Positions 9,318 to 52,810 of a stretch of 64,000 nucleotides of DNA are shown here, one piece after another; positions within the stretch are counted from its first letter, which is position 1; each line of letters opens with the position of its first letter. The notes beneath the pieces were generated by a model, which did no database searches, was not told the DNA's origin, and was given only the letters and a program-made list of their open reading frames with translations. The stretch spans positions 320,001-384,000 of the forward strand of contig CAXXYE010000007.1 in the NCBI GenBank assembly GCA_963674865.2. Direction: 5' to 3'. The DNA is from Candidatus Hydrogenedentota bacterium. Its GTDB lineage: Bacteria > Hydrogenedentota > Hydrogenedentia > Hydrogenedentales > SLHB01. A program made the position numbers and the translations under genes.

Positions 9318-9439
9318 GCGTTACCCCGTTCCGCTGTGGCCCGTCCATATGACTGGGCACAGGGATAATCTATCAGGTCGAGACACCGCAGGTCACATCG
9401 GCGGCGGTTGTCTCGGCAGGCAAGGCAAACAGCACAGTC

Positions 9440-10330
9440 CTAGCCTTGCATATCTTCGCCGTTTGCTGAGGGCCGCGAGGCGACGTGGGGCAGAATATAT
9501 GGCGCGTCGAGACAAAGCCGGAGGCCGAGGAAGCCGAACCGGGCCTTTTGACCCAGAGCGTAGCTGTAGGCCGACCGGCAACTCAAGGGTTCGCTGACCC
9601 AGCCCCCTCCGCGCATGACTCGCGCCGGGCCCGCCGTGTCAATGTTCGGGTTATAGGTGACGCCGTAACGGTCCTGGCACCATTCCCAAACGTTGCCGTG
9701 CATGTCATAGAGGCCCCATGCATTGGGCGGAAAGCTCCCGACGGGCGTTGTGGCCGCTCGGTACGCGCCGCCGGGTCTCCCGGCGTACCGGTATTCGCCA
9801 TTGTAATTGGCGCGGTCCGTGCTGATGGCGTAACCGAAATTAAAGGGCGAGGTCGTGCCCGCGCGGCAGGCGTATTCCCATTCGGGCTCCGTGGGCAAGC
9901 GGAATTGTAAGCCCGTGCGGTCGTTGAGCCGCTGGATAAACACTTGGCAGTCCTCCCAGGAGACGCATTCGGCCGGATGGATGTAGCTGTGAAACTGGAA
10001 GCCCCTTCCGTCGGTACCATCATTGCCCATGACCGCGACCCACTGGGCCTGGGTGACCTCGTATGCGCCCATCCAAAAACCGCTAGCAATGGCAACCTCC
10101 CGCTGGATTTCATCCTCGGGATCACGTTCCGGCTCCGACGGCGGGCTGCCCATGACAAACGTGCCCGGCGGCACCCATACCATCTGAATTCCCGCGATCA
10201 ACCGTTCCTCGCCGGGCAGCCCCGGCCTCAACGGCTCCATCCGCGGCCGCGGTTGGCCCACCTTCGCCCCTTCCGGGCAGCCTACCCCCAGCAGCGCTAT
10301 CATAATGAGAAGACATGCCATGCGTTTCAT
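9440..10330 (-). CDS. Lipoprotein with FGE/SUMF1 domain
   Basis: MKRMACLLIMIALLGVGC lipobox; RLPTEPEWEYACRAG, NAWGLYDMHGNVWEWC. Confidence 0.88.
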   Translation of the reverse strand: MKRMACLLIMIALLGVGCPEGAKVGQPRPRMEPLRPGLPGEERLIAGIQMVWVPPGTFVMGSPPSEPERDPEDEIQREVAIASGFWMGAYEVTQAQWVAVMGNDGTDGRGFQFHSYIHPAECVSWEDCQVFIQRLNDRTGLQFRLPTEPEWEYACRAGTTSPFNFGYAISTDRANYNGEYRYAGRPGGAYRAATTPVGSFPPNAWGLYDMHGNVWEWCQDRYGVTYNPNIDTAGPARVMRGGGWVSEPLSCRSAYSYALGQKARFGFLGLRLCLDAPYILPHVASRPSANGEDMQG

Positions 10331-10478
10331 CGTCCCGCTCCTTTCCACCGTCGTCGTTGCATCTGTTAAGTGAGGAGCAAGGCGTGTGCCGGGGCCCTTG
10401 TGACAAGGAGGTCACGGGCACGAGCGGCCGAGCTAGATTTGACCCGGAATGAGTCAAGGTCTTGAGGTGGGGCCCCGG

Positions 10479-21990: not shown

Positions 21991-22058
21991 AGCGTTTCCC
22001 TCCTTACGCAATGGCTTCGGTTCGCGGATAGAGAAGCGCAAACCGCGTGCCAAGCTTC

Positions 22059-28531: not shown

Positions 28532-29848
28532 CTACGTATACGCCGCCGAGAGTTCCGTAAGAAACTCAGCGGCCGTCGGATACCGCTCGTCGGGTCTTGA
28601 TGCCAGGGCTCGGTCAATAACACGCGTTAGTGATGGTTCCAGTTCGGGCAGACGCGAACGGGCAGGAACAAGTCGATTCTCCAGGATGGCCTGTAAGGGA
28701 TCCTGGTTGGACTTCGCTTCCCGTGGCGGGCGGCCCGTCAGCATGAAATAGAGTGTCGCTCCGAAGCTCCAAACGTCACTGGCCGGATTGACGTACTTGA
28801 AGTCCGTGAGTTGCTCACGTGGCATGAATGGGTACGTTCCAAGATACGTGCCCGTAGCGGTCAGACCACTGAAGCCGGCACCTTGGAAAGACTTCGCGAG
28901 GCCGAAGTCGCCGATCAGAGCCACGGAGCCTGCCTTCGTCTTCTTGAGGAGGATGTTCTCGGGTTTGACGTCTCGATGGACCAGCTGCCTTTCATGGGCG
29001 TACCGGAGCCCTTCCAGGGCCTGCAGCGCGACCGGCAACGCCACTTGCGTTGGCAGGCGGCCGCCACCGTCTCGGACCAGGTCGGCAACACTGCCTCCGT
29101 CGCAGTAGTCCATCTCGAACCAAAAGGCATCATCGACAGTGCCGCACGCATGACAGGCCACAATGTTCGCATGACGCAGCTTGCGCAGAATGGTCGTTTC
29201 ACGAAGAAAGCGTTCCCTGGATACGTCATCTACAGAGACTCTTGGCAGCATTAGCTTGAGGGCTACCGGCTCTTGTTGTTGGCGACGGTGGGCCAGGAAG
29301 ACGGTGCCGCAGCCCCCTTCGCCGAGTTTCCTGTCGACTTCGTAGCCTGGGATGGCTGCGGCGTAGTCTTCGGGTGTCTCGCGAGACGGCTCCTGCCCGA
29401 CACGGGGGGGAGCTTCACGCCCGCTGGGAGGACACCCCGGGGCAGCATGGCCGCGTATGGAGACGGCGAAAGCCGTTTCGCCAACTTGTATCCGGTCGCC
29501 GTCCTGAAGACTGACTTGAGGATAACGTCGCTTTGAGGCCTGTTGCGGCGTTTCTTCCTTGCCCCGGCCGCCGTATTTCTTGCCGTTGACATGGGTCCCG
29601 TTAAGACTTCCTAGGTCCCGTACGCACGCGCTCGGAGGACAGACTTCGAGGATGAAGTGATGGCGCGACACGAAGGAATCGTCTTTCAAGAAGGCGTGAC
29701 AATCGGGACTTCTCCCAAAGAGGAAGGTGTCATACTGGTGGAATACGAACCGCTCACCTGTCAACGGTCCACTGACGGCCTGCAGCTCGACGTGCCCAGA
29801 TGAAGCCGTTGCGCGATCCCCCAGACTGTCGACGCACGTCCTTTTCAT
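28532..29848 (-). CDS. FHA domain + Ser/Thr kinase (start uncertain; ORF open to 29980)
   Basis: FGRSPDC..VSRHH..DLGSLNGTHVNG (canonical FHA); GEGGCG, HRDVKPEN, DFG. Confidence 0.92.
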   Translation of the reverse strand: MKRTCVDSLGDRATASSGHVELQAVSGPLTGERFVFHQYDTFLFGRSPDCHAFLKDDSFVSRHHFILEVCPPSACVRDLGSLNGTHVNGKKYGGRGKEETPQQASKRRYPQVSLQDGDRIQVGETAFAVSIRGHAAPGCPPSGREAPPRVGQEPSRETPEDYAAAIPGYEVDRKLGEGGCGTVFLAHRRQQQEPVALKLMLPRVSVDDVSRERFLRETTILRKLRHANIVACHACGTVDDAFWFEMDYCDGGSVADLVRDGGGRLPTQVALPVALQALEGLRYAHERQLVHRDVKPENILLKKTKAGSVALIGDFGLAKSFQGAGFSGLTATGTYLGTYPFMPREQLTDFKYVNPASDVWSFGATLYFMLTGRPPREAKSNQDPLQAILENRLVPARSRLPELEPSLTRVIDRALASRPDERYPTAAEFLTELSAAYT

Positions 29849-30094
29849 TCCGCGCACGTGGCCGTTGGACGCACGTGTCGCCCGTTCTCCTGATGTATCC
29901 ACTGGGCCAGCGGGCCGACCACCGTCATCTCTAGGCGGAAGTAAGAGGTGGTGACCTCTAGAGAAGCCGTCAGCAGCCACGTCCGATTATTCCTCACTCC
30001 TTCCCGGGTACATCGCGCAGCCGCCCGACCTGAATTGGCTGTCGTAACGCTGGGCGGCTATCAAATACGGCTCGCGTTGTCTTCTTAGCAGTTT

Positions 30095-32038: not shown

Positions 32039-33223
32039 CTAGTCTATTAGAATCACCACGAAGCCCTCGCCCTGCGCCAACCGGCTCTCCAGCAGCGGCG
32101 TGAGCTTGAGCAGTGCCACACGGCCCAGCACAATGTCTTCGTTCGACTCGCCGCCCAGTCCCGCCGCCTGGATAACGAGCGGCCTCGCCCCGAAACCGGG
32201 GATGGACCGGGCCTCGTCCATAGTCCGCGCATAGCGTACCGTGGGCTCCTTGCCTGTGGCCAGGTGGTCCAGGATGCCGCCCGCAAGGGGAAACACCTGC
32301 TCGCCCTTCTTCGTCACGGCCCGGGGCTCGAGAACGGGCATGGCGCCGAGTCCGCGCGCGTCCACCACGAGGTCCGTGTAGGCCCCGTCATCCGCCAAGG
32401 CCCGCTGGGGCAGCGCAACGGTGATGTCGTCGACGCGCACGTCCGCGGGAGGTCCGACCAGCGCCACGATCGGCGGTTCCGGCTCGGCCGCCTCAGGATT
32501 GGCAACCACCGGCGCCGTGGGGGCGGCGGTAGCCTCCGCGGGCGGACCCGCTTCCGGTGCGGGTTCGTAGGGCGCGATCACTTCCTCGACAGCGGGCGAG
32601 TCAGGAGAAGAAGTTTCGGGCGCGGCCGGGCCGGCCTCGGGAACGTCCTCGTCCCCTCGGGCCGGCGCCCCCTCGCGTATGGTCACGTCCGGCTCACGCC
32701 CGAAAACCGTTGCATCCCGATAGACGGCCAGCCGCCCGGGCTGGATCCGGTAACCCTCCGGCGACGAGAAATCCTGGCCATGGTTGGATCGCGCCAGCAC
32801 CACCTCGACGTCCACTTCCGCCGTGCCGTCCTCACAATATCGCGTCTGAAGCACACGCACCCCTTTCAGGAACCCCCGGGTCTGCTCGCGGACCGCGTAC
32901 CGGGTCTGGACGAAGTCCCCGGATTCGCTCTGCGATGACAGATCCACCCCTTCCAGCAGCGCCGCCAGCTTCTTGAGCGCGTCCAGCTTGGCCGCCCCCA
33001 CGGCCATCAGACGCGCCTGGGCAGGCGAGACCGCGTCCGCAGGCGCCGCGCCGTACCCCGTCACACGGAAGACCCCCGAACCCATGTTAACATCGTTCAA
33101 GAGCGCCGGTTTCGGCGCCCTGTCCTGCCGCCCAAGCAGCGTATCCCACGCCGCGCGCAACTCCAAGGCCGACGCTGTCGTCGCCATCGCTGCGACTGCC
33201 AAGATAACGATGAGCTTCTTCAT
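32039..33223 (-). CDS. Secreted LPP20/FlgP-like protein with Pro-rich linker
   Basis: Signal peptide MKKLIVILAV; VTGYGA..ARLMAVGAAKLDALKKLA; YTDLVVDARGL. Confidence 0.7.
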   Translation of the reverse strand: MKKLIVILAVAAMATTASALELRAAWDTLLGRQDRAPKPALLNDVNMGSGVFRVTGYGAAPADAVSPAQARLMAVGAAKLDALKKLAALLEGVDLSSQSESGDFVQTRYAVREQTRGFLKGVRVLQTRYCEDGTAEVDVEVVLARSNHGQDFSSPEGYRIQPGRLAVYRDATVFGREPDVTIREGAPARGDEDVPEAGPAAPETSSPDSPAVEEVIAPYEPAPEAGPPAEATAAPTAPVVANPEAAEPEPPIVALVGPPADVRVDDITVALPQRALADDGAYTDLVVDARGLGAMPVLEPRAVTKKGEQVFPLAGGILDHLATGKEPTVRYARTMDEARSIPGFGARPLVIQAAGLGGESNEDIVLGRVALLKLTPLLESRLAQGEGFVVILID

Positions 33224-33431
33224 GACCCCGCTCCTTTCCTCTAGGGATGCCGTGAAATCGTCTTGCCATGGAAGGAGCAAGGCCCGTGCCGGGAAAGGTG
33301 TGACAGGCGGGTCACAGGAGAATCAGACTGCCGGCAGCCCTCTCCGCGTTGCTCGGCGTCCTCTGCAGCTCTGCGTTTGGATTTTTTTTAGCGCCGAGAT
33401 GCGGAGTTCGCAAAGGAGCGCAGAGGAATCA

Positions 33432-33677
33432 CGTGGTTAACTTGATCAGTTCCTATGCCGCGGCCAGGGCTTCGCCCTGGACCCACTAAGATTGCTCGGT
33501 GCGACGCACCTCACAATCTCAAACAACATCCCCCTCCGAAGCACCTTAACCAGGGAAAAACACCCCCGCGCTACGGGCCTGTGCGCGGCCTATGCTACGC
33601 GGCCGCGCTCTTGGCCCTTCGCGCTTCGCGGCTTACGCCGCGCAAGCAACAAAGCCGCAAAGCAGTAAGCAGCAAAA
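33432..33677 (-). repeat. Conserved 3' trailer of DGR-target gene, copy 2
   Basis: Matches 6937-7181; hairpins include 33583-33608 and 33627-33642. Confidence 0.9.
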
Positions 33678-33800
33678 CTACGGCCTGGCGAGGCGGAACC
33701 CCAAGCGGCTGCGCCGGTAGCCCGGGACGACCCTGAAACGATTCGCGGAACGGCAGTACCACGGATTGAGGGACCAGCTGCCACCACGGAGCACCCGGTA
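33678..33800 (-). other. Putative DGR variable repeat (VR2)
   Basis: Same NNC/NGG variation pattern; invariant 3' tail. Confidence 0.85.
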
Positions 33801-35732
33801 CGAGCCTGTGCTGGGGCCCGTGGGGTCGGTTACTGAACCCGAAGGATAGTCCCCGTACCAGTCCTGGCACCACTCCAAAACGTTACCAATCATGTCGTAT
33901 AAGCCAAAGGCGTTGGGGCGAAAACTCCCAACTGGCGCCGTCACCTTATGGCCGTCCGTCGTGTCAGCAGCGTCCCAGGGGTGGTTGAACTCCGCCTTCC
34001 CTGTTCGGTCATAGACGTTTGCGTAGTTGCCCATCGTTCCGTCGTCGTCCCCCCAGTAACGCACCGTATCCGTCCCGGCACGACACGCATATTCCCACTG
34101 CGCCTCCGTCGGCAACGTGAAACCCTCGCCCGTCCGCTCCGAAAGCCACTTGCAGAATGCCTGAGCATCTTCCCAAGAAACATACACCGCAGGTTGTCGG
34201 TCGCCGTCCAGGCTGTGGCCTGCGTATTCCTTGCTCGAATGATCAGCCTTGAAACGCCGGTACTGGGCATTCGTCACCTCATACTTGCCCATCCAGAAGC
34301 CCTTTGAAATTGTCACCCGGTGCCGCGGATGTTCGTCCGTGTAGTATTCCGCTTTGCCGTCGTACTTCGATGCCACCTGCTCGGCGCTTAGCTTGGACCC
34401 CATCATGAAGTCCCCAGGCGGAATCCACACCAGCTCGAGCGTCACACCCCCGCCAAGGTCGACCGTCTTGATGTCACCGGGCGTGGGCTGTCGCTCAGTC
34501 TGTTGCGACGGTTGCCTCGAGGCAGCGGGCGCGGCCGTTGTCGATGCCGGGCCTTGCCCTGGGTCATCACGCGCCGCCCGGCCCTGCTGGCCAGAGGTCT
34601 CAGAAGAGGCCGCCCCTGCAAGGCCGTTATCTTCCGGCCCCGCGGGAGCGGGGCCCTCCCGGCGGAGGATAAAGGGCACAGCCAGCGCGAGCATCACAAC
34701 AGCGGCGATAATCAAGAACATGCGCCTCTTCGGCGCAGCCTTTGCGGTTAGCGCCGGTGGCTCCGGCTGTCGTTGGCGCGGCTCTTGTATCTCCCTCGGC
34801 TGCGCGACACCGTTACCTGTGCGGCTGCGGCCTGAACCTCCGGACAACGCCTCCTGTGTGGTGCTTTCGCCCTCACGAACACCTTGACGAATGAGCCTCT
34901 GCACAACCTTTGCCGACTCGGGTCGTTCCTCAGGCGATGGAGCGAGCAGCTCGAGCAGGAGGTCGTCGAGCCATCGAGGAAGGCTACTATTGAACTCACT
35001 GGGCAACCTGAACCGGCCCAGGGGTAACCGCCCGGTCAGGCATTGGTAAATCACCACGCCCAACGAGTACAAGTCGGCCCGCCGCGTCGCCTCCTCCCCC
35101 TGGAGCTGTTCGGGGGCCATATATACGGCCGTGCCGACGGCTGCACTCGACTGCGTGAACCGGTTTGAACCCACGATCCGCGCCAGGCCGAAGTCCAGCA
35201 ACTTCACGGCGCCGTCCCGGCAAACAAAGATGTTCTGTGGTTTGATGTCTCGATGTATCGTCGTGCGGTGCGCGTAAGCCAGTGCCTCCAAAACACCGGC
35301 CATGACCCGCAACGTCTTGTCTAGGGACAGCGTGCCCCGCTCACTGAGGATTTCATCGAGGCTGTGGCCGTCGAGATACTCCATGGTCAGGAAACGAATG
35401 CCTGCGTGCTCACCCAGGTCATAGGTTGTCACGATATTCGGGTGAGAGAGCTTCTGGGCAATGTGGGCTTCCTGCACGAACCGCTGCTGAGCGCGTTCGC
35501 TCTTCATGAGGGACGGCAGGATGACCTTGAGCGCCTTGAGTTCGCCCTCCATGAGCTGGTCTCGGACCTTGTACACCAGGCCCATGCCCCCGCCGCCAAC
35601 GGCCTCGACCACCTCGAAACGATCGGCGACAACCTCGCCCGCCGCGAAAACGACGCCCTCGTCCTTCGCCGTGAACAGCGTCGGGTGGTCGCCAAGACTA
35701 TCGATGTTGAATGAACGTTCCATGTCCCCCAA
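33678..35732 (-). CDS. Ser/Thr kinase + TM + FGE/SUMF1 domain; putative DGR target 2
   Basis: GGGGMG, HRDIKPQN, DFG; TM MFLIIAAVVMLALAVPFIL; LPTEAQWEYACRAG; ends RGGSW..GFRLARP. Confidence 0.93.
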   Translation of the reverse strand: MGDMERSFNIDSLGDHPTLFTAKDEGVVFAAGEVVADRFEVVEAVGGGGMGLVYKVRDQLMEGELKALKVILPSLMKSERAQQRFVQEAHIAQKLSHPNIVTTYDLGEHAGIRFLTMEYLDGHSLDEILSERGTLSLDKTLRVMAGVLEALAYAHRTTIHRDIKPQNIFVCRDGAVKLLDFGLARIVGSNRFTQSSAAVGTAVYMAPEQLQGEEATRRADLYSLGVVIYQCLTGRLPLGRFRLPSEFNSSLPRWLDDLLLELLAPSPEERPESAKVVQRLIRQGVREGESTTQEALSGGSGRSRTGNGVAQPREIQEPRQRQPEPPALTAKAAPKRRMFLIIAAVVMLALAVPFILRREGPAPAGPEDNGLAGAASSETSGQQGRAARDDPGQGPASTTAAPAASRQPSQQTERQPTPGDIKTVDLGGGVTLELVWIPPGDFMMGSKLSAEQVASKYDGKAEYYTDEHPRHRVTISKGFWMGKYEVTNAQYRRFKADHSSKEYAGHSLDGDRQPAVYVSWEDAQAFCKWLSERTGEGFTLPTEAQWEYACRAGTDTVRYWGDDDGTMGNYANVYDRTGKAEFNHPWDAADTTDGHKVTAPVGSFRPNAFGLYDMIGNVLEWCQDWYGDYPSGSVTDPTGPSTGSYRVLRGGSWSLNPWYCRSANRFRVVPGYRRSRLGFRLARP

Positions 35733-36099
35733 ACACCTCGCTAGGACAAAACACAGTGTAGCCTAAGCCTCGGCCTCGGACAAGCCCATGAAGACAGGCA
35801 TCGTAGCTTGGGACGGGCGAGACCTTCGCCTAGGCTACCGGTCTCGCTACGCAATGCTCTCCCTCTTGCACTTGGAATCATCCTTCCGTGAAAGTAGCAG
35901 GGCCCGTGCCGGGTAAGATGCGACAATGGGGCCACAAGACAAGGAATTGAATAGCGGGATGTGGTCTTCTCTTGGCGCACTTAGCGCCTTGGCGTCTTTG
36001 CGTGAGAATATCTTTAACATGGAGGCGCCGAGGTCGCGCAAACACGCGGCGGAATCGCGTGTTTCATCAGCGAATTGACTGTCTCATATGTCCCTTTTT

Positions 36100-36130
36100 G
36101 ACCACGGAGGGCACGGAGAACACGGAGAAG
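36100..36130. repeat. 9-nt periodic repeat flanking the GxxExxY gene
   Basis: GACCACGGAG-GGCACGGAG-AACACGGAG; near copy at 36619-36652. Confidence 0.7.
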
Positions 36131-36205
36131 GTACCATGCCGATGTCGCTCATGCTTTCGGTAGTCTTCTCGCGCCTTCCTCAGTCGCCCCGAACGCTTCG
36201 CTCTA

Positions 36206-36601
36206 TCATCCGATGGACACCCGTCGCAGCCCGTCAATCATCCGCGGGACGTTGAAGTTCATCAGGTAGCCACGTCTGAAACCCAGCAATCGCAAGTAGC
36301 TCAGGATTTGGGCCATGTGGAGTTCGTTCAACTCTGATACGCATTTCAACTCGAGCAGCAGACAGTTCTCGACGATCACGTCCGCCCGAAAACCAAGCCC
36401 CAGATCGTGTCCGCGGTACGTGACGGGGATCTCGACTTGTGTGGAAGCAGCGATCCCAAGGCCCTTCAATTCAAATGCCAGCGCTTTCTCGTATACGGAC
36501 TCCAGTAATCCAGGTCCGAGCTTCCGGTGCACCGTAATCGCCGCGCCAATAACACGTTCGCACAGGGCATCCGGGCAATCGAGTAGTCCCGCGTTGCTCA
36601 T
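36206..36601 (-). CDS. GxxExxY protein (PD-(D/E)xK nuclease superfamily)
   Basis: VHRKLGPGLLESVYEKAL, FRADVIVE, LELK, HMAQILSYL, GYLMNFN; 131 aa from ATG at 36601. Confidence 0.93.
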   Translation of the reverse strand: MSNAGLLDCPDALCERVIGAAITVHRKLGPGLLESVYEKALAFELKGLGIAASTQVEIPVTYRGHDLGLGFRADVIVENCLLLELKCVSELNELHMAQILSYLRLLGFRRGYLMNFNVPRMIDGLRRVSIG

Positions 36602-36672
36602 AGTTTCAAGATCCTTATGACCACGGAGATAAGGGCACGGAGAACACGGAGAGAGGCCCCTCTTTCTTCCTC

Positions 36673-36773
36673 CGTGGTTAACTTGATCAGTTCCTATGCC
36701 GCGCTTCTGGCCCTTCGCGCTTCGCGGCTTACGCCGCGTATGCCGCAAGGCCGCAAAGCAGTAAGCAGCAAAA
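36673..36773 (-). repeat. Conserved 3' trailer of DGR-target gene, copy 3 (internally deleted)
   Basis: Both ends match copies 1 and 2; lacks 145 bp; keeps hairpin 36723-36738. Confidence 0.88.
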
Positions 36774-36896
36774 CTACGGCCTGGCGAGGCGGAACCCCAA
36801 GCTGCAGTGCCAGCCGCCCGGGACGCTCCTGCTACGATTCGCGGAACGGCAGAGCCTCGGGGCGTCGAACCAGCTGCCACCGCGGAACACCCGGCG
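36774..36896 (-). other. Putative DGR variable repeat (VR3)
   Basis: Same NNC/NGG variation pattern; invariant 3' tail. Confidence 0.85.
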
Positions 36897-39641
36897 CGAG
36901 CCACTACTGGGGCCCGTGGGGTCGGTTACGGAACCCGAAGGATAGTCCCCGTACCAATCCTGGCACCACTCCCAAACGTTACCGTGCATATCGTAAAGCC
37001 CCCAAGCATTCGCGCTCTTCCCGCCCACGCTATGAGTCTTCCAATCGCTGTTGCCGCTATACCATCCGTACCTACTCAGTGTGGAAGACGAATCTCCAAA
37101 GCAATACGCCGTCGTACTACCCGCACGGCACGCGTACTCCCACTCCGCCTCCGTCGGTAACCGGAAGGTGCCCTGTCCTTTAGTATTCAACTTCTTGACG
37201 AAGGCCTGGCAGTCGTCCCAAGAAACTTGCTCCACAGGTAGGTCGTCGCCCTTGAAGTGCGACGGATTATTACCCATTACCGCCTTCCACTGCGCCTGGG
37301 TTACCTCGTACTTGCCCAGCCAGAAACCCTTCGTGAGCGCTACCCGGTGCTGGGTCTCATCATCATCCCGGTTTTCCTCGCCCGCCGGGCTCCCCATCGT
37401 GAAGTCCCCAGGCGGAATCCACACCAGTTCGAGCGTCACACCCCCACCAAGGTCGACGGATCGCGTTTGACCCGCCTTAGGCGCCTGAGCCAATAGCTTG
37501 CGCTCGGGCGTCACCTCGACGGCCTTGGCATATTGCCCCTCGGCCTTGCCATACTGCTCGGAGGCCGCGCTGTAGTCGGCGGCGGCGAAGGCCTCCTCAG
37601 CCGATGACCATGCCCGATCGCCTGCGCCCACTTCGTCCTCGGCATACTTCCGCTCGTCCGTGCCGATCTGTTTCTGCGACGCGAGCGCGTCTTTCCGGGC
37701 CGTGTCGGCGCTCTTCTTCGCTGCAGCGAGGCGCTCACCAGCGATCTTCGCAGCCTCTGCGTATTTCGCCTCTGACTGCTGGTACAGGTCCTTAGCCTTA
37801 TCGAAATCCGTCTCCTTGCCCGCTTCGGACATCACGCCGTCTGCGCTGGCCAGTTCGCGGGACGCATACTTCCTCACCGTATCCGTCTGGGCCTTGGCCC
37901 GCGCCCCCTCGGCCGCTTTGCGTGCCGCGGCTACAATCGCCTCGCCCTGCTGCGCCGTTTCCGAGGCCGCGAGCTTGAACAGGCCCGCCGCTTGCTTGAG
38001 CAACTCGGCGCCCTTCACGCGGTCCTCAGTCAGCAGCGCTTGTTCCTCGACCTCGATGGCCTGTTCGTAGCGCGTCTTGGCCCATGTCGCCCCGTCGAGG
38101 GCGTCGGCTGCTTCCTTTTCCTTCTCGAGGTCGGCCTTGGCCTTATCAAATGCCGCAATCTCAGCAGATAACCTCTCGCCTTGCGCCTGCGCCTGGGCGA
38201 ACAGCGCCTCCGCCTCCTGGTACTTCTCCACGGCGGCGTCAAATGCCCTCAGCCTGTCATGGGCTTCCCCGTCCTTCAGGGCCTCTGAGCCCGCTTTGAA
38301 CAGTTCCTCCGCATGTTGCCCCCCCCCGGCGTCCTTAGCGGCTTGCTGGGCCGTCACGGCAGCTACCTTCGCCGAGCTGGCGTCTGCGGCCGTGGCGGAA
38401 TCAGGGACTGTCCCAAGCGAGTCCGCCGAAGGCGGACGAGACGGGACTGTCCCTAATTCCCGCGAAGCAGCGGGGCCATCCCCTGCCATGTCCGTCTCGA
38501 TAGGCTGGGAGGGTCGCGGCCCTGCACGTCCGTCCGGCCCTGCGGGAGCGGGGCTCTCCCGACGCCCAATCAGGAGCACGGCCAAGGCGAAGACGACAAC
38601 AGCGGCAACCCCCAGAACCGCCCATTTTGTCTTGCCTGTTCGTTGCGCCGCCCTGTCGAGCGCGTCGCGTAGAGCGGCGGCGGATTCATAGCGATCCTCC
38701 GCGCGGGGTTGAAGGCAGCACATAACCACCGAGTCAAGGGACTTGGGAACACCGGCAGCCACACGCGAGGGCAGGCCCACCGCGCCCACCGGGATCTCTC
38801 CCGTGAGCATCTGGTACAGGACCACCCCCAGGCTGTAGATATCCGCGCGGGCGTCGAGTTCTCGGAGGTGGATGCTCTGCTCGGGGGCCTGGTAATAGGC
38901 CGTGCCCAGCGCCATGCTCGACTTCGTCAGCCGGCCCGGCGACATGAGTTTCGCCAGGCCGAAGTCCAGCACCTTGATGGCGCCGTCGGGCCGGATCATG
39001 ATGTTCTGCGGCTTGAGGTCGCGGTGGATGGTGTTCTGGTGAGCGTATTCAAGGGCGTCGCAGAGCTGGCGGGTGATATCGAGCGCCTCATCGACGGGCA
39101 GCCGCCCGCCGCGTTCCTGTAATACGCGATGCAGCGTCTTCCCTTCGACATACTCCATCGTGAAGAAGTAGAAACCCCGGCGCTTGTCCGCCGCCAGGTC
39201 GTGCACCCGCACGATGTTGTCATGGCTCAACTGCTGGCTGATGGCCACCTCGGAGCGGAAGCGTTGCCGGGCCGTTTCGCTCGCCAGTAGCGAGGGCAGC
39301 ATCACCTTGAGGGCTTTCTCCAGGCCCAGGTGGCGGTCCTTGACGTGGTAGACGGCACCCATGCCCCCGAACCCGAGCTGCTTCACCACCTCGAACCGTT
39401 TCGCCACCACATCGCCCGGCTTCAGCAGGACGGATTGCTGCTCACGAATCAGGTCCGGGTCGAGTTCACTCCCCTGTGGCAGGAACGGCTTGAGCTGATC
39501 CTCCGCCCACGTCGGCGAATCTCCCGCCGACACCATCCCCGGGACAAACTCCTCCCCCGGCGCGCCGGCTCCCTCGCCGTCGCCTTCCCACCGCGTGGGA
39601 TTGTCGCCTTGACTGCTTATTTCTGGCGGTTCATGTGCCAT
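36774..39641 (-). CDS. Ser/Thr kinase + TM + Ala-rich helical stalk + FGE/SUMF1 domain; putative DGR target 3
   Basis: Kinase nearly identical to 16173-18938; TM WAVLGVAAVVVFALAVLLIG; RLPTEAEWEYACRAG; ends GFRLARP. Confidence 0.93.
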   Translation of the reverse strand: MAHEPPEISSQGDNPTRWEGDGEGAGAPGEEFVPGMVSAGDSPTWAEDQLKPFLPQGSELDPDLIREQQSVLLKPGDVVAKRFEVVKQLGFGGMGAVYHVKDRHLGLEKALKVMLPSLLASETARQRFRSEVAISQQLSHDNIVRVHDLAADKRRGFYFFTMEYVEGKTLHRVLQERGGRLPVDEALDITRQLCDALEYAHQNTIHRDLKPQNIMIRPDGAIKVLDFGLAKLMSPGRLTKSSMALGTAYYQAPEQSIHLRELDARADIYSLGVVLYQMLTGEIPVGAVGLPSRVAAGVPKSLDSVVMCCLQPRAEDRYESAAALRDALDRAAQRTGKTKWAVLGVAAVVVFALAVLLIGRRESPAPAGPDGRAGPRPSQPIETDMAGDGPAASRELGTVPSRPPSADSLGTVPDSATAADASSAKVAAVTAQQAAKDAGGGQHAEELFKAGSEALKDGEAHDRLRAFDAAVEKYQEAEALFAQAQAQGERLSAEIAAFDKAKADLEKEKEAADALDGATWAKTRYEQAIEVEEQALLTEDRVKGAELLKQAAGLFKLAASETAQQGEAIVAAARKAAEGARAKAQTDTVRKYASRELASADGVMSEAGKETDFDKAKDLYQQSEAKYAEAAKIAGERLAAAKKSADTARKDALASQKQIGTDERKYAEDEVGAGDRAWSSAEEAFAAADYSAASEQYGKAEGQYAKAVEVTPERKLLAQAPKAGQTRSVDLGGGVTLELVWIPPGDFTMGSPAGEENRDDDETQHRVALTKGFWLGKYEVTQAQWKAVMGNNPSHFKGDDLPVEQVSWDDCQAFVKKLNTKGQGTFRLPTEAEWEYACRAGSTTAYCFGDSSSTLSRYGWYSGNSDWKTHSVGGKSANAWGLYDMHGNVWEWCQDWYGDYPSGSVTDPTGPSSGSRRVFRGGSWFDAPRLCRSANRSRSVPGGWHCSLGFRLARP

Positions 39642-39747
39642 TTCGGAAATTGCCCACGTATCTCTCCTTGACGACCGAACCGCACTCTGTCTGGGCCACA
39701 AACTCTAAGTAAGCGTCGCCGCTCTTGAGCAAGGACCTCGTTCTTAC

Positions 39748-41361: not shown

Positions 41362-41494
41362 GTTAGGTCTCCTTCTCAAAGCCGATTCCGGGAGCTTTGT
41401 GACTTTCCCGTCCCACCTTCCTCGGTCCTATGTCTTCACGATACTATACCAGGCAAAGTGCGTGCCAGCGTGTAACACCATCTGCCTGAGGCGG

Positions 41495-42646
41495 CTATGC
41501 CGCCATATGCTCGTCGCGAAACTTCGCCAGCTTGGCCAGTTCCGCAGGGCGGATTGACGGCCGCACCCGCTGCAGCGCGGCGTCGAAGTCGGCCATGGTA
41601 ACAGGCTCCGGGTCGTTGACGGACCCGAAAGCTCCGTCGTGACGCTGGAGCGTGCGCTTCAGAGCCGCCATCTTTGCTTCGACGCAAAGGCTGTCGCGCT
41701 CCCCGGCGATGTCGGCGCCGGAGTAGCCTTCACAGCGGCCCGCTAGAGTCGCGTAGTCCAGACCTTCTACAGGCGTATTATCCATCGCCCGCTCGATCAT
41801 GTAAGCTCGAGCGTTTTGATCCGGCAGCCCCACGTAGACCAGCCGGCCAAAACGTCCCGGCCGTGTCGCCGCCTCGTCCATTAGCCACGGCCTGTTGGTC
41901 GCCCCTAGGAGAATGACGCAGTTCCGTGTGGGGTCCAGTCCGTTGATGAGTTGAAGTAATTGCGGTACAACCCGGGCCATAACGGATGAATTAGTCGCCG
42001 CCCGTTTGGGGAACAAGGCCTCCGCTTCGTCAAAGAAGATCACGGTGCGTGGGTGGCTCCTCGCCGCATCAAAGAGCTGGCCAAGCAATTGCTCCGTTTC
42101 CCCGAACCATTTGCTCAGCACGCGCTTCATTTCGACCGGGATGAACGCCGCGTCGACCTCGCCCGCGATGGCCCGCGCCATGAAGGTTTTGCCCGTTCCC
42201 GGGGGACCATACATCAGCACCCCCGAGCCAGGCCGAAGCCGGTACTCCGCGTACACGTCGGCGTGCTTAATGGGCAGGATGATGTGGCTGTGAATAACCT
42301 CCTTGACCTCATCCATGCCCGCCACGTCGTCTAAACGCGTGTCCGGCCGCTCCGTGGCAACCCACGCTCCGGGTTCCCGTGTGACCTCGCCCGTCCCGTC
42401 GCTCGTGACCCGGGTAGCCGGCTTACCCCCTCGGTTCCGGGTCAGTGCTTTGTCGCCTTGCGCCTCGTAACGCTTGGCAAGGCGGATGAGACTGCCCCGT
42501 GTGCGTCCCGCACTGTTCTGAGCCATGCACAGACTCATGCGGGAGGCGTTGAAGAGGTTGTAGGCCACCATGCGCCAGTCGTTGCGGTCCAACGCCGTTT
42601 TGACTTGGCCTTCAGCCAGCCGTCGTTCTCGTTCGTAGTCCATCAC
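41495..42646 (-). CDS. Single-ring AAA+ ATPase with MIT-like N-terminus (Vps4/CdvC-like candidate)
   Basis: GPPGTGKT, SKWFGETE, IFFDEAE, GATNRPW..RPGRF; ~70-aa helical N-terminus; C-terminal VTMADFDAALQRVRPS..KFRDEH. Confidence 0.85.
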   Translation of the reverse strand: MMDYERERRLAEGQVKTALDRNDWRMVAYNLFNASRMSLCMAQNSAGRTRGSLIRLAKRYEAQGDKALTRNRGGKPATRVTSDGTGEVTREPGAWVATERPDTRLDDVAGMDEVKEVIHSHIILPIKHADVYAEYRLRPGSGVLMYGPPGTGKTFMARAIAGEVDAAFIPVEMKRVLSKWFGETEQLLGQLFDAARSHPRTVIFFDEAEALFPKRAATNSSVMARVVPQLLQLINGLDPTRNCVILLGATNRPWLMDEAATRPGRFGRLVYVGLPDQNARAYMIERAMDNTPVEGLDYATLAGRCEGYSGADIAGERDSLCVEAKMAALKRTLQRHDGAFGSVNDPEPVTMADFDAALQRVRPSIRPAELAKLAKFRDEHMAA

Positions 42647-42655
42647 GCGTCTCCC

Positions 42656-43291
42656 TTAAGCCAGCGCTTCATCCATCTTGCGCTCCAGGTCGGCGTCCAT
42701 ACGGGCCAAGCCGGCTTCCTGACCATCCGCGGCGTCGCCCTCGATAGCGCCTGCCGCCTCGTTCACCACTTGGGCGTAGGCGTCCTGTTCCTCCTCGTCA
42801 AGCGCCGCGCTCGACGCGGGCGCCGCCACATCGACCAAACTGGTCTCCGTCCATGGCTCGACCAGATCCTGGTTGCGCTGGGCAAGCTCCGTAAGCCGTT
42901 CGCGGACCTCATCCGGATCGACGCTTTCCCGGGCGAGCTCCTCGATTCGTGCCACGACCTCCATCCCGCGGACAAATTCGTCATAGTTGTCCTTTACCTG
43001 AACCTGTTCCAGCGTGTACTCCATATTGTTGACCGCCAGCGTGCGCGCAACGGCTTCCTTATCAATCTGCACGAGTTGCCGCACCATCTGTTTGGCCAGC
43101 CCGGGCTTGCCCTGACGCTCATAAACCACGGCTTTGCGCCTCATCTCCTCGGCCTTGGCCTGGCGCTTCGCCACACTGCGGCGTTCGCGACGGACCGCGG
43201 TCCTGGCCTTGGTAAGCGCCTGTCGGCGCCTTCGGGCGCGCTCGGCCTCCCGGCGGCGCCGCGACTTCAGTAGGTGGCTCCAAGTACTCAT
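42656..43291 (-). CDS. Snf7/ESCRT-III-like helical protein
   Basis: 211 aa; very basic N-half, acidic C-half; KAVVYERQGKPGLAKQMVRQLVQ; tail DADLERKMDEALA (MIM1-like). Confidence 0.7.
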   Translation of the reverse strand: MSTWSHLLKSRRRREAERARRRRQALTKARTAVRRERRSVAKRQAKAEEMRRKAVVYERQGKPGLAKQMVRQLVQIDKEAVARTLAVNNMEYTLEQVQVKDNYDEFVRGMEVVARIEELARESVDPDEVRERLTELAQRNQDLVEPWTETSLVDVAAPASSAALDEEEQDAYAQVVNEAAGAIEGDAADGQEAGLARMDADLERKMDEALA

Positions 43292-43315
43292 GTCCCTTAT
43301 CCTCCACATTGGCCG

Positions 43316-45234: not shown

Positions 45235-45361
45235 TTGTGTCCTGCTCCAATTGGGTGCCAAAAGCTACTCCGCATGGAGCAAGACCGGTGCCATCTTTCC
45301 GTGACGAGAAGGTCACAACCTCCGAAGGATGCTAGGAGACGTGGCCTGGGCAAGCCCGGGT

Positions 45362-50737: not shown

Positions 50738-51967
50738 TCATGTCTGGACCAGCCGCTCCACCGCCGCTGCCTTGTGCTCCGGAGCGAGGTGGGCGTAACG
50801 CAGCGTCATCTTGATATCCCCGTGTCCCAGCAACTCCCGCACCGTATTCAGGTCCACGCCCGCCATAACCAACTTGCTCGCAAAATGATGCCGCATGTCG
50901 TGCCAGCGAAAGTCTTTGATATCCGCTAAGGTCATTAGACTACGCCAAGCAGCGCTGACACTGTCAAGACGGCCCCCGGTGCGCGGCGACTTGAAAACAA
51001 GTCCGGCACCTGGGGTTTGGTCACGCCAGTCTCGCAGCACGGACCGCGCGACGCTATTGAGCGGAACATGGCGTGTCTTGCCGTTCTTGGTGACCGACCC
51101 TCGTAACGTTAGCATGGACCGTTCGAAACTCACATCGCCCCACTCTATGCTGACGAGTTCTCCCCGGCGAAGGCCGGTATGAAGCGACAATAAGACCATC
51201 GGTTTGAGATGGTCCGCAAAGCTACCCTGAATCAGCTCGGGCGCGGCCCCACCGTCTCCATGATCTTGATGTGCCCTTGCCCTAACCTGCCTTATTCGTT
51301 CTTCACGCTTGTCGAGTGCCGACAGAAACCGTCGCTCCTCCTCCTCGTCGAGATATCTGATGACGGCTTGCGTATCGGTCTTCAACTGGCGGACCGAGGA
51401 CAACGGATGTACATCGAGGCAGCCCGTCCTGACGGCGTGCGAGAAGACAGCCTTGAGACACTTAAGATCTCGGTTGACCGTCGCAGGCTTAACGCCCGCT
51501 GCGAGGCGCTTTGTCTGCCATGCTGTGATGGCGCTGGCATAGGAACGGTCCTCGAGCGGCCAATCCCAGTACTCGGCAAAGTGATATCTCAGTCGTCTCA
51601 GTGTTTCACGGCCGCGCTTCTGAAAAGCGAGGCAAGCGGCCGCATACTCGTTGTCTATGAATGACCCAAGAGTCTGGCCCCCTCGCAACGCTCTCTTCAC
51701 ATCCTGAGGGTCATTGCCCTTCGTGACATCGGCCAGCGCTTCCTGCGCCAGCTCACGTGCCTGTGCAGGACTCAGCACATGTGCCGAACCGATCTTAAGC
51801 CGTTGGCGCCGTCCAGTGGCTGTACGGTAGCGCACGGAATACGAGGTCGGTTTACCCTCGGACGAAACACGGACGGCGAAACCGGGCAACTCTGTGTCAT
51901 TAACATCGTACCCCTTCCCCGTCTCTTTGAGCGTCCTAAGAAGGTTCTGCGTAATCTTAGCTTTCAC
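50738..51967 (-). CDS. Tyrosine recombinase/integrase with N-terminal arm-DNA-binding domain
   Basis: DTELPGFAVRV..QARELA; TGLRRGEL, TKNGK, HDMRH, LLGH, TLRYAH (R-K-H-R-H-Y). Confidence 0.95.
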   Translation of the reverse strand: MKAKITQNLLRTLKETGKGYDVNDTELPGFAVRVSSEGKPTSYSVRYRTATGRRQRLKIGSAHVLSPAQARELAQEALADVTKGNDPQDVKRALRGGQTLGSFIDNEYAAACLAFQKRGRETLRRLRYHFAEYWDWPLEDRSYASAITAWQTKRLAAGVKPATVNRDLKCLKAVFSHAVRTGCLDVHPLSSVRQLKTDTQAVIRYLDEEEERRFLSALDKREERIRQVRARAHQDHGDGGAAPELIQGSFADHLKPMVLLSLHTGLRRGELVSIEWGDVSFERSMLTLRGSVTKNGKTRHVPLNSVARSVLRDWRDQTPGAGLVFKSPRTGGRLDSVSAAWRSLMTLADIKDFRWHDMRHHFASKLVMAGVDLNTVRELLGHGDIKMTLRYAHLAPEHKAAAVERLVQT

Positions 51968-52132
51968 GGCGGTCGCCCTCTGTTCTTGGTCCCCTAGTGG
52001 GTCCACCGTAAGTATACATGGAAGAACACCCGGAAACAAGCAGAAACGTGCATAACCTTATAAAGGTTTTCTTTATATGGTTTTAGTGTTCCTGGTTGTA
52101 TCTGGTTGTTCTCCGGTATTTCCTATGATAAC

Positions 52133-52810
52133 GCCCCGAAGGGGCGTCCGCATGTAGCCATCTGTAAGCGAAGTGAGCCCACGGAACCCGCCCGTGCCCC
52201 ATGGATAGCCCCGAAGGGGCGTCCGCATGTAGCCGTGGGTGAGCGAAGCGAACCCACGGACATAGGCCCCCTCCCATCCGTAGCCCCGAAGGGGTGACAG
52301 CACACCTGGGCTCGCCATCTACCCTACGCCATCCAACACCGGCCTTTCCGCGCCTCAAGGGGCGTCCGCATGCAGCCGCGGGATAAGCGAAGTAAGCCCA
52401 CGGAACCCGCCCGTGCCCCATGGATAGCCCCGCAGGGGCGTCCGCATGTAGCCGTAGGTGAGCGAAGCGAACCCACGGACATAGGCCCCCTCCCATCCGT
52501 AGCCCCGAAGGGGTGACAGCACACCCGGGCGCGCCATCTACCCTACGCCATCCAACACCGGCCTTTCCGCGCCCTAAGGGGCGTGCGCATGTAGCCGCGG
52601 TCAAGCGAAGCTGAATGACCCGCGGCGGCGGGCGGAAGAATCGTGCCCTGGGTGTCAACCCGAGGGCAGAACATCACCCTGACGCCCGGCCCCCTTAGGG
52701 GCGGCACAAACCTGCTCGCTCGCTTGCCCTGAAAGGGCAACACATACCAGCCCGGCGCTACGCGCCGGGAATCCATCGCCACAACACGCCGAGCCCTGTA
52801 AGGGCGCGAC
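52133..52810. repeat. REP-like palindromic cluster with a 219-bp tandem unit
   Basis: Repeated GCCCCGAAGGGGCG..ATGTAGCC and CCGTGGGT..ACCCACGG stems; 52181 vs 52400 and 52321 vs 52540 offset by 219. Confidence 0.85.

Follow-up and report, generated by a model that had tools for sequence, protein, structure and literature searches.

Receptor kinases of the PknB/Stk1 type combine a cytoplasmic Hanks kinase, one transmembrane (TM) helix and extracellular PASTA domains that bind the ligand. As for the targets of diversity-generating retroelements (DGRs), they vary at the 3′ end of the gene, at sites that are adenines in a template repeat of the same genome (typically positions 1-2 of AAY codons), by way of a DGR-type reverse transcriptase with the motif IGxxxSQ that usually comes with Avd. 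A further mark is the IMH, the GC-rich and conserved end of their variable region (VR), together with a hairpin just downstream.

Proteins joining a kinase to a DGR-diversified domain have been described before. Wu et al. (2018, PMC5758913) list kinase plus FGE-sulfatase targets as their category b12, document multiple and remote targets per DGR, and describe TvpA as a surface lipoprotein without a kinase. For cyanobacterial proteins in which a kinase is joined to a domain of the C-type lectin (CLec) kind, Vallota-Eastman et al. (2020, PMC7517822) proposed a role in tuning signal transduction, and Doré et al. (2024, PMC10907252) presented DGR-diversified CLec 'antigen sensors' of multicellular bacteria that are linked to domains for signalling or for effector functions, with both cytoplasmic and periplasmic placements predicted. 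The statement of an earlier note on this DNA that DGR-targeted multidomain signalling proteins exist in other bacteria agrees with what these three papers set out, since DGR targets that combine kinase and FGE, like the idea of a 'variable sensor', have appeared in print there. For the kinases treated here, an 'antibody-like' or variable sensor would be, by analogy, an instance of that published hypothesis for the class.

Four kinase genes and their predicted membrane topology

The window, that is, the whole stretch of 64,000 nucleotides that was analysed, comes from a genome of an uncultured Candidatus Hydrogenedentota bacterium and contains three of four genes coding for kinase-TM-linker-FGE receptors (33678-35723, 36774-39641 and 7182-9317, the last one outside the region 33678-39641 of the earlier note). 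The fourth gene (c316, C7:316170-319094) precedes the window, just outside it. All four follow a common plan: an intact Ser/Thr kinase of the Hanks type comes first, then a single helix of strong hydrophobicity, then 68-377 residues of linker, and at the C-terminus a CLec domain of the FGE type. Their parts up to the outer domain, and the paralogues used for comparison, are the following:

33678-35723, minus strand: receptor kinase k33678, 681 aa, ATG at 35723, with kinase, TM helix, 68-aa linker, FGE/CLec domain and variable tract
36774-39641, minus strand: receptor kinase k36774, 955 aa, ATG at 39641, with kinase, TM helix, 370-aa Ala/Glu/Lys-rich linker, FGE/CLec domain and variable tract
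7182-9317, minus strand: third receptor kinase k7182, 711 aa, with zinc ribbon, kinase, Glu/Arg-rich segment, TM helix, 70-aa linker and FGE domain
34899-35618, minus strand: kinase domain of k33678 (GGGGMG, ALKV, HRDIKPQN, DFG, APE)
38784-39395, minus strand: kinase domain of k36774 (GFGGMG, ALKV, HRDLKPQN, DFG, APE)
34665-34721, minus strand: TM helix of k33678, MFLIIAAVVMLALAVPFIL, with KRR just before it; mean hydropathy 2.96 over 19 residues, the sole such segment
38565-38621, minus strand: single TM helix of k36774, mean hydropathy 2.94
8133-8189, minus strand: TM helix of k7182
37455-38564, minus strand: long linker of k36774, predicted extracytoplasmic, the first ~55 residues Pro/Ser-rich and the remainder predicted helical
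16173-18938, minus strand: non-variable paralogue k16173, kinase 88% identical to that of the fourth gene, one TM helix, a different FGE domain; negative control
9440-10348, minus strand: FGE-only paralogue f9440, N-terminal signal- or lipoprotein-like segment, without the variable-tract signature
2-910, minus strand: kBound, a zinc-ribbon/kinase/FGE protein of 568 aa that continues to C7:319204 and of which the kinase half lies here, no TM helix, no variable-tract signature

In the open reading frames 33678-35732 and 36774-39701, Pfam Pkinase was matched with E values of 1.1e-48 and 1.8e-46 and FGE-sulfatase with 4.1e-57 and 1.9e-50, respectively, and k7182 has the same Pfam domains; the starts chosen for the first two genes (681 and 955 aa) are those of the proteins in public collections. 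Across the receptor kinases, Pkinase was matched with E values between 1e-46 and 1e-48. All six kinases examined have the glycine loop, HRDxKPxN, DFG and [AS]PE, and the NCBIfam model PknB_PASTA_kin finds the kinase part with E 4.2e-79, short of its cut-off. The kinases of c316 and k36774 share 89% of their amino acids, and the higher identity of their codon positions 1+2 (0.93) than of position 3 (0.65) indicates functional genes. In a cluster look-up at 90% identity each of the four proteins stands alone, so that there are no natural variants for comparison.

The arrangement originally proposed from the letters, a single TM segment preceded by basic residues that separates an intact HRDxKPxN/DFG kinase from a C-terminal FGE domain, holds in all four receptor genes. 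One 19-residue segment with a mean Kyte-Doolittle hydropathy of 2.4-3.0 lies right behind the kinase in the four variable genes and in the paralogue 16173-18938, with 2-5 Lys or Arg in the 15 residues on its N-side; the positive-inside bias is modest (K+R 2-5 on the N-side against 2-3 on the C-side). No signal peptide was found at the N-terminus of the ~340-residue kinase part. Hydropathy and reasoning from the order of the domains, which are the basis of this topology, support an N-in/C-out receptor kinase whose FGE domain is predicted to lie outside the cytoplasm, as the earlier note had expected. The FGE domain might instead be cytoplasmic, picking kinase substrates or auto-inhibiting the kinase, a role that has been put forward for kinase-CLec proteins of cyanobacteria, with a hydrophobic segment that is no span. 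Such an arrangement could draw on the window's zinc-ribbon/kinase/FGE protein and on the orthologue in G031, a relative of the same order, both lacking the segment, as well as on the cytosolic prediction for most cyanobacterial variable proteins in Vallota-Eastman et al. (2020, PMC7517822), but we hold it very unlikely in view of a segment of at least 19 residues, with hydropathy 2.4-3.0 and charged flanks, found once per protein in all four variable genes. What the G031 orthologue, which has no TM helix, does indicate is that membrane insertion is no fixed trait of the family.

The linkers between helix and FGE domain are as unlike in length and composition as had been noted. That of k33678 has 68 aa, 54% of them P/S/G/T/Q, and that of k7182 has 70 aa. 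The linker of k36774 (370 aa, 24% Ala, 43% A+E+K) and that of the fourth gene (377 aa) are 81% identical; AlphaFold2 predicts the former to be helical at residues 56-359 of 365, a call of low confidence (mean pLDDT 56.6).

The outer domain and its variable tract

The C-terminal domains and the tracts at their ends were located as follows:

33681-34460, minus strand: FGE-type CLec domain of k33678, predicted extracytoplasmic (AlphaFold2 pLDDT 94.5, pTM 0.92)
36777-37454, minus strand: FGE/CLec domain of k36774
33705-33851, minus strand: DGR-type variable tract of k33678, with its variable codons at 15-63 of the last 72 and its core at 33705-33809
36801-36947, minus strand: DGR-type variable tract of k36774
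7209-7355, minus strand: variable tract of k7182

A Foldseek search with the model of the k33678 domain retrieved human FGE (E 3.4e-22) and TvpA (2y3c, E 8.7e-20), the latter with the lowest rmsd (2.6 Å) among the matches listed. For the last 80 residues alone, the best PDB match was TvpA (E 1.6e-19), aligned without gaps across the variable tract, an alignment from which the variable residues may be expected to cluster on one surface. The earlier note had stated that these domains lack the catalytic Cys motif of true formylglycine-generating enzymes, and the HMMER alignment to human and Streptomyces FGE agrees: the first Cys of the catalytic C-x4-C (the copper-binding pair C336/C341 of human FGE, in the numbering of PDB entry titles) is replaced by L in k33678 and by F, G or D in its paralogues, while the second is aligned with a conserved Cys, as in TvpA. 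The site of the replaced Cys is itself a variable one. These results support a non-catalytic, TvpA-like FGE/CLec fold for the outer domain. That it could belong to the FGE/EgtB/PvdO enzymes and work on a substrate outside the cytoplasm, and be no binding module, appears scarcely credible; the fold is like that of FGE and the Pfam and NCBIfam matches to the superfamily, PvdO included, are strong, but an enzyme would hardly have a different residue in every paralogue in place of the first copper-binding Cys, nor a tail whose best alignment, free of gaps, is with the non-enzymatic TvpA.

In each of the four genes, the final ~65 codons bear the signature of a DGR. In all six pairs, third codon positions are 0.91-0.94 identical in this part and positions 1+2 only 0.76-0.83, whereas third-position identity in the remainder of the genes is 0.29-0.78, near saturation. 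Over the last 72 codons 52 columns vary, 40 of which fall on positions 1-2, and most of the variable codons have the form NNC. The inversion was absent from the four control pairs with k16173, whose tail has a third-position identity of 0.34-0.38 with the four genes, and from the six pairs among kBound, f9440, k16173 and k33678. Two patterns made from the shared 3′ ends each had 3 matches in the window, with 0 expected (100 shuffles). The template repeat (TR) was not seen, so that the apparent adenine specificity of the variation is read from the four copies in place of a TR/VR comparison. About 11 private substitutions of non-adenine type were counted in the four tracts, 9 of them at third positions, a level similar to the divergence of the flanking 3′ element.

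Gene conversion that homogenised the 3′ module, with positive selection on a binding site making the amino acid differences, would dispense with any retroelement. The whole module is indeed ~90% identical, and where the FGE domain begins there is another short tract that has been homogenised, which makes recombination among the paralogues plausible. Such a course would nevertheless need 40 changes at positions 1-2 of ~24 codons whose third positions keep an identity of 91-94% and are C in most cases, the pattern expected of randomised AAC codons, in the very tract where DGR targets of the TvpA type have their variable region, and we regard it as highly improbable. A one-time recombinational spread of the whole 3′ module also fits the like divergence of third positions and 3′ element; even so, the variation at positions 1-2 would still need a DGR.

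The 3′ element and the search for a DGR core

Behind the tracts, three copies of a conserved element were delimited in the window:

33440-33677, minus strand: conserved structured 3′ element behind the k33678 tract
6937-7181, minus strand: 3′ element of k7182
36673-36773, minus strand: shortened 3′ element of k36774, with the first ~80 nt including the hairpin and the last ~31 nt, without the ~155-nt middle

This element was found behind the four genes only; its copies are 86-91% identical (89-91% among three of them, ~90% when taken together with the coding tail). Around the stop codon, a stretch of 37 nt is the same in every one of the four genes, and ~35 nt past the stop lies a 6-bp hairpin (CGCGGC-GTAA-GCCGCG). 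Its RNA fold has a z-score of -5.44, with none of 200 shuffles equally stable, and includes one compensatory pair; folded as DNA, the first 111 nt are unremarkable (z 0.45). No Rfam family matched at gathering score, and the sub-threshold matches to gut-2 (E 0.16) and Clostridiales-1 (E 0.27) were taken as chance. No similarity to the element was seen in 148 of 151 other fetched loci (the remaining three, with copies from this genome, were left out), and a DNA search of 41 genomes returned tract and element from this genome only. Since the IMH is defined with the help of a TR, the GC-rich end is here judged from the four target copies alone. It is conceivable, though unlikely, that we are looking at a distributed DGR in which a core on an unbinned replicon serves in trans four receptor kinases near the replication origin, and in which the ~235-nt lineage-specific structured element is a new, extended homing beacon beyond IMH plus hairpin.

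The assembly is a metagenome bin of 11 contigs and 5.79 Mb (97.49% complete). Neither blastn with word size 7 nor fuzzy patterns found a TR in the genome, the four tracts alone being matched, and a genome-wide scan of 171 fixed positions gave full matches to those tracts only, the next best reaching 102/171; weaker template matches (C7:149427, C9:257471, C9:1931332 and C2:231519) were unrelated FGE domains. The two reverse transcriptases (RTs) of the genome (PF00078) both lack the DGR motif IGxxxSQ, and DGR RTs of relatives (LPIGNLTSQ) used as queries found nothing better than these same two (E 2e-5 and 0.016). The neighbouring frames 32039-33280 and 5325-6731/4911-6854 match no family and are not RT-like. 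For Avd, both the bAvd model PF22296 (0 matches in the assembly) and queries from relatives came out empty. Beyond the assembly, the tract pattern had no match in one genome per GTDB species, two such patterns had none in viral contigs, and five matching metagenome contigs turned out to be other variable-type FGE tails with no template. Two sequencing runs of one sample contain the stretch as Logan contigs, among which there was no template copy; the variants listed for the 33678 tract there (80% likeness) equal the paralogous tracts, and those of high depth are FGE genes of other organisms.

Among relatives, two of the four regions fetched hold canonical DGR cassettes with FGE targets. In G031 the orthologous kinase-FGE gene is followed by a truncated avd remnant, with no DGR RT found, which offers a precedent for DGR loss; the contig ends ~360 bases past the remnant. 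Ten fetched loci of relatives had no DGR RT, and one had an avd remnant. A metagenomic homologue of 70% identity served to fetch a further 80 loci, of which 6 have a DGR RT and 11 a kinase, with no overlap.

From these results, the words 'hypervariable' and 'targets' in the earlier note stand in part. DGR-type codon variation is concentrated in the C-terminal tract and the signature of a target is there; present-day hypervariability does not follow, as TR, DGR RT and Avd are absent from the assembly (TR and RT also from the window) and non-adenine changes have accumulated. The genes would accordingly be either remote targets of a core that escaped assembly or, slightly likelier, orphaned and frozen. 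As live targets, the four kinases would keep having their tips rewritten, guided by the 3′ marks, by an active core that the assembly misses, either because it falls in a gap or because its plasmid or phage was not binned; in a bin of this kind a gap or an unbinned replicon could indeed contain it. Four intact reading frames, the invariant stop region with its conserved hairpin and a 3′ element far better kept than synonymous sites elsewhere in the genes, as if still used, all agree with this, as do the canonical DGRs of relatives, the RT-remote targets at >100 kb documented by Wu et al. (2018, PMC5758913) and the frequency with which DGR repeats break or escape assemblies, for which the G031 contig end may serve as an example. 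It has to be set against the lack of all three core components in 5.79 Mb at this completeness, the empty searches of viral contigs and of the GTDB species set, the five template-free metagenome matches, and the ~11 private non-adenine substitutions that repeated homing from one template should erase; we consider live targets possible, at chances somewhat short of even. Loss of the core and freezing of the tips are slightly favoured, a weak lean that comes from those same substitutions. Active, accepted DGRs also tolerate a few non-adenine mismatches, which is what keeps the lean weak.

Proposed mechanism and comparison with described systems

The account that we propose, receptor kinases with DGR-written and now frozen tips whose core is absent, has in our judgement about an even chance of being correct as a whole. 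A cytoplasmic kinase with one membrane helix would present the TvpA-like, non-catalytic FGE/CLec domain outside the cytoplasm on a linker that is disordered where short and helical where long. The ligand-binding tip, ~19-24 codons within the last ~65, would have been written in the four paralogues by mutagenic retrohoming from one shared template, in which the adenines of AAC-type codons were randomised to yield four different binding surfaces on one scaffold. The conserved GC-rich end, the hairpin and the larger structured element behind each stop would be the probable cis marks for homing. With the DGR core since lost, each frozen tip would represent a fixed specificity under purifying selection. 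Binding of a ligand outside may then alter kinase activity inside, as in receptors of the PknB type, and the resulting phospho-threonine may be read by FHA proteins. Candidates for such a reader are found in the window:

921-3305, minus strand: zinc-ribbon protein whose C-terminus matches FHA weakly (E 0.0026, under the Pfam cut-off)
28532-29980, minus strand: FHA-plus-kinase protein, the one solid FHA of the window (FHA E 5.2e-14, Pkinase E 2.4e-48)

The first of these aligns over its full length with its orthologue L064:5125-7389 (36% identity, E 4e-140), which has an FHA match of E 1e-06 and is encoded directly upstream of a kinase-FGE gene in G031. That FHA proteins such as these two may read the phospho-threonine signal, as the earlier note suggested for the FHA proteins of this region, is an inference to which this conserved synteny in one relative lends some support. 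PADLOC matches to PD-T4-6, mad6 and PglW reflect generic kinase-domain similarity and are no evidence for a defence role, and there was no excess of sigma-54 motifs in the window (8 against 4.9 expected).

If the tips are, or were until recently, rewritten, the genes would form a small repertoire of membrane receptors with hypermutated outward sites wired to phospho-signalling and, if true, a clean non-cyanobacterial case of the 'variable sensor' idea. Four tips from one template, three unwritten paralogues and a relative's orthologue without a membrane span make a natural comparison. The missing mutator would add to the DGR targets that outlive their DGR and bears on former targets missed by RT-first surveys. 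The established picture of DGR biology is left unchanged by these genes, and no paper naming both 'diversity-generating retroelement' and 'Hydrogenedentes' was found in the collection searched.

As in the b12 proteins, at least as presented by Wu et al. (2018, PMC5758913), an N-terminal kinase is here fused to a C-terminal FGE-type CLec domain with a variable region; what differs is the presence of four paralogues on one inferred template, each with a TM helix, in a Hydrogenedentota assembly without RT or TR. The cyanobacterial Ser/Thr-kinase-CLec proteins, in the description of PMC7517822, likewise put a Hanks kinase on a DGR-diversified CLec domain and come as many dispersed paralogues per genome, but they are mostly predicted to be cytosolic and their genomes have a DGR core, whereas here a single-pass protein with its CLec domain outside is predicted. 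The systems that Doré et al. (2024, PMC10907252) describe are for the most part conflict systems of the STAND NTPase and MoxR/vWA kinds, accompanied by their own DGRs, in contrast to plain receptor kinases for which no core was found. TvpA of Treponema denticola (2y3c) has the same FGE-type CLec fold without FGE activity and a variable region that aligns without gaps; in place of a surface lipoprotein without a kinase, the domain is here the predicted sensor of a receptor kinase. Compared with PknB/Stk1, finally, an FGE/CLec sensor with a tip probably written by a retroelement would take the place of the PASTA repeats.

Receptor architecture and the outer domain

The assembly under study is a metagenome bin of 5.79 Mb in 11 contigs, in which the kinase and FGE genes of the island are arranged as listed below, together with one small neighbour (bare coordinates are window positions; the window corresponds to C7:320001-384000, C7 being its contig).

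Kinase and FGE genes of the island and a small neighbour
33678-35723, minus strand: receptor kinase gene, 681 aa, N-terminal Pkinase and C-terminal FGE-sulfatase domains
36774-39641, minus strand: receptor kinase gene, 955 aa, N-terminal Pkinase and C-terminal FGE-sulfatase domains
36206-36570: small GxxExxY / PD-(D/E)XK_3 gene between these two kinase genes (E 9.2e-39)
7182-9317: kinase and FGE gene, the third target of the earlier note
16173-18938: kinase and FGE paralogue
C7:316170-319094: kinase and FGE gene directly ahead of the window
Straddling the window start: 568-aa kinase and FGE protein
9440-10348: FGE-only gene

As had been described for three targets (33678-35723, 36774-39641 and 7182-9317), a single transmembrane segment preceded by basic residues follows an intact kinase, and the same holds for a fourth variable gene, the one ahead of the window. 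In these four genes and in the 16173-18938 paralogue there is one 19-residue segment only with a mean hydropathy of 2.4-3.0, directly C-terminal to the kinase and with 2-5 Lys/Arg ahead of it. The hydropathy scan found no such segment in the 568-aa protein, and the FGE-only protein starts with a signal-like segment. The glycine loop, HRDxKPxN, DFG and [AS]PE motifs are retained in all six kinases. As the proteins lack a signal peptide and have only one span, hydropathy and logic place the kinase, of about 340 residues, on the inner side of the membrane and the FGE domain on the outer side. The reported diversity of stalks, including a long Ala/Glu/Lys-rich one, was also recovered: linkers from helix to FGE domain measure 68, 70, 370 and 377 residues in the four variable genes, the two long ones containing 24-25% Ala (43-44% Ala+Glu+Lys) and being modelled as helical by AlphaFold2 at a low mean pLDDT of 56.6. 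Moreover, the kinases of the two closest genes are 89% identical in amino acids at a third-position identity of 0.65, which indicates that the variable receptor-kinase genes are under purifying selection.

An AlphaFold2 model of the outer domain of the 33678 gene (residues 425-684, counting from the TTG at 35732; 27-sequence alignment) reached a pLDDT of 94.5 and a pTM of 0.92. Foldseek matched this model to formylglycine-generating enzymes (E 3.4e-22) and to TvpA (2y3c), the DGR target of Treponema, which among the rows listed had the lowest rmsd (2.6 A). TvpA was also the best match of the last 80 residues among all PDB chains (E 1.6e-19); its alignment is gap-free over the variable tract, and true FGEs require a three-residue insertion. 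The absence of the catalytic Cys motif, already claimed in the earlier note, is borne out by alignment with the human and Streptomyces FGEs, where the C-x4-C pair keeps a Cys at its second position only, the first being occupied by a different residue in each paralogue. Because of the TvpA-like fit and the loss of this Cys pair, the outer domain is predicted to be a TvpA-like binding module rather than an enzyme.

A hypermutation pattern in the tips and the search for a retroelement core

Three genes of the window have in common the final ~200 bases of coding sequence as well as the DNA that follows, patterns built from this stretch giving 3 matches in the window against 0 expected, and a fourth copy lies at C7:316138-316388. 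Over the last 65 codons, identity in all six gene pairs is 0.91-0.94 at third positions and 0.76-0.83 at positions 1 and 2, while outside the tail the same genes show third-position identities of 0.29-0.78, most pairs being near saturation. The 52 variable columns of the last 72 codons fall 22, 18 and 12 at codon positions 1, 2 and 3, and most variable codons have the form NNC. As read from the alignments, this reversed pattern is the product expected of adenine randomisation in AAC-type codons of a shared template. It was absent in all ten control pairs, six among other FGE paralogues and four with 16173-18938, whose kinase shares 88% identity with the fourth gene's and which therefore serves as a strong control.

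A copy of the template was not found in the assembly by blastn with 7-base words, by fuzzy patterns or by a scan of the 171 positions fixed across the four tracts, in which the tracts reach 171 and the runner-up site 102. A search of the genome for bAvd gave no match. Two reverse transcriptases are present, both with C-terminal extensions and weak DRT/Abi-like matches:

Reverse transcriptases of the genome
G000:C9:936417-936866 (G000 is the genome under study): 699 aa
C10:113529-113960: 516 aa

Neither the motifs of the two (GLPQGPLAS, GIPVGPHWT) nor the families they match (group II-like and DRT/Abi-like, all below cut-offs) are those of DGR enzymes; both are probably defence-type proteins with no relation to the variable tracts. 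Canonical DGRs do occur in a same-order genome (caspase-FGE target, TR, RT, bAvd, PEGA-FGE target) and in a same-family genome (1328-aa FGE target, GIY-YIG, HRDC, RT); the RTs of these relatives carry LPIGNLTSQ, and as queries they retrieved only the two unrelated RTs of our genome, at E 2e-5 and worse. Altogether, the earlier observation of kinase, membrane span, stalk and FGE domain is confirmed together with a DGR-type codon pattern. Its interpretation as antibody-like sensors is partly supported: the DGR-type tips on receptor kinases stand, by codon pattern and fold, but no TR, DGR-type RT or Avd was found in the assembly.

Some 11 private substitutions in the four tracts, nine of them at third codon positions, are not of the adenine-mutagenesis type and bear on whether the tips are still active. 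Such changes should be reset by repeated homing from one template; per lineage, they approximate the divergence of the adjoining non-coding element (86-91% pairwise identity). In the same-order relative G031, an orthologous kinase-FGE gene (47% identical overall, 64% in the kinase) has no membrane span, and the avd reading frame after it resembles Avd over 33 residues before degenerating; this 98%-complete genome yielded no DGR RT. The fetched locus (L064, on G031:C187) holds at 5125-9788, in a row, an FHA/zinc-ribbon protein, the span-less orthologue and the truncated avd remnant. This row looks like a decayed DGR beside a cytosolic version of the receptor, so that G031 appears to show DGR loss in a same-order relative. 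Because of the non-adenine substitutions and this example, orphaned and frozen tips are slightly favoured over active ones. The lean is weak, since some non-adenine mismatches are tolerated in accepted DGRs and the assembly is a bin. A further reason for its weakness is remote action, passages of Wu 2018 (PMC5758913) documenting DGRs that act on targets >100 kb distant.

The structured element behind the variable tracts

One copy of a 3' element lies behind each of the four variable tracts:

Copies of the 3' element
33440-33677
6937-7181
36673-36773
C7:315943-316172

A stretch of 37 bases at the stop codon is invariant in all four genes, and about 35 bases after the stop comes a GC hairpin of 6 bp whose loop is GTAA. 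The invariant end and the hairpin agree with features of DGR target recognition. A middle part of ~155 bases is present in the elements of three genes and missing behind 36774, where the missing part is flanked by short GCGCGGC/TCGCGGC repeats; the GxxExxY / PD-(D/E)XK_3 gene comes immediately behind this shortened element. The 238-base element folds as RNA at -122 kcal/mol against -98.2 +/- 4.4 for shuffles (z -5.44; none of 200 as stable), and comparison of three copies gave one compensatory pair. It was found nowhere else in the genome, in none of 148 of the 151 fetched loci (the other three, left out, hold the genome's own copies) and without a match in Rfam. On these folds and searches, the element is lineage-specific and strongly structured.

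A second short tract marks the start of the FGE domain (VDLGGGVTLELVWIPPGDF; 34398-34463, 37392-37457 and 7860-7925), with DNA 82-95% identical among paralogues and third-position identity of 0.75-0.78; the FGE domain between the two tracts is far more diverged. It could stem from recombination or nucleotide-level constraint.

Signalling context and known systems

What the analysis establishes is the set of parts with their order, the fold, the lost Cys pair and the hypermutation pattern. By inference, each of the four receptors would use its own outward surface to bind ligands at the envelope or in the periplasm, and binding may switch the cytoplasmic Hanks kinase in the manner of PASTA kinases. 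The phospho-signal might then be read by FHA proteins, a link suggested by one solid FHA protein, the FHA-kinase 28532-29980, by a weak C-terminal FHA match (E 0.0026) in the zinc-ribbon protein 921-3305, and by gene order in G031, where a full-length orthologue of the latter (36% identity, E 4e-140; own FHA match E 1e-06) lies directly upstream of the kinase-FGE gene.

The island has further features. A 967-aa protein (19150-22053) carries four PASTA domains, Laminin_G_3, InlB B-repeats and 300-nt internal repeats 99% identical (19162-19461, 19891-20190); LpoB-like and SLT transglycosylase genes nearby lend the island a cell-wall character. A Vps4-like AAA ATPase (41495-43309; AAA E 8.5e-35, Vps4_C 29.4 bits, above cut-off, PADLOC IetA E 4.7e-32) and an adjacent protein whose Snf7/ESCRT-III match falls below threshold (25.5 bits, cut-off 27.3) belong to an operon of unknown genes. 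At 50738-52600, two tandem 217-nt repeats (52165-52600, 96% identical) come after a tyrosine integrase (Phage_integrase E 3.5e-29). The position of dnaA (C7:311167-312528) puts the island near the likely replication origin. Beside the fourth receptor gene, C7:313073-315776 encodes a histidine kinase and a sigma-54 activator, and a ~46-nt motif with a sigma-54-type -24/-12 box (GGCAC-N5-TTGC) lies on the coding strand just upstream of several island genes, its count in the window not being above chance (8 vs 4.9 expected):

Sites of the sigma-54-type motif
10373-10418
33273-33318
35893-35938
also 41453-41467
45279-45293
22038-22052

Kinase-plus-FGE targets are known as class b12, alongside remote targets, from parts of Wu et al. 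2018 (PMC5758913). Passages of Vallota-Eastman et al. 2020 (PMC7517822) describe, for cyanobacteria, variable proteins of the Ser/Thr-kinase-CLec type that have numerous remote paralogues and are mostly predicted cytosolic; ligand-activated signalling is proposed for them. Membrane anchoring in most cellular DGR targets is stated in a section of Roux et al. 2021, and DGR-diversified antigen sensors, some with periplasmic CLec domains, are proposed in one of Doré et al. 2024 (PMC10907252). The literature search found no paper joining DGRs and Hydrogenedentes. Distinctive here are the phylum, the missing core, the four membrane-spanning paralogues from one template and the structured 3' element.
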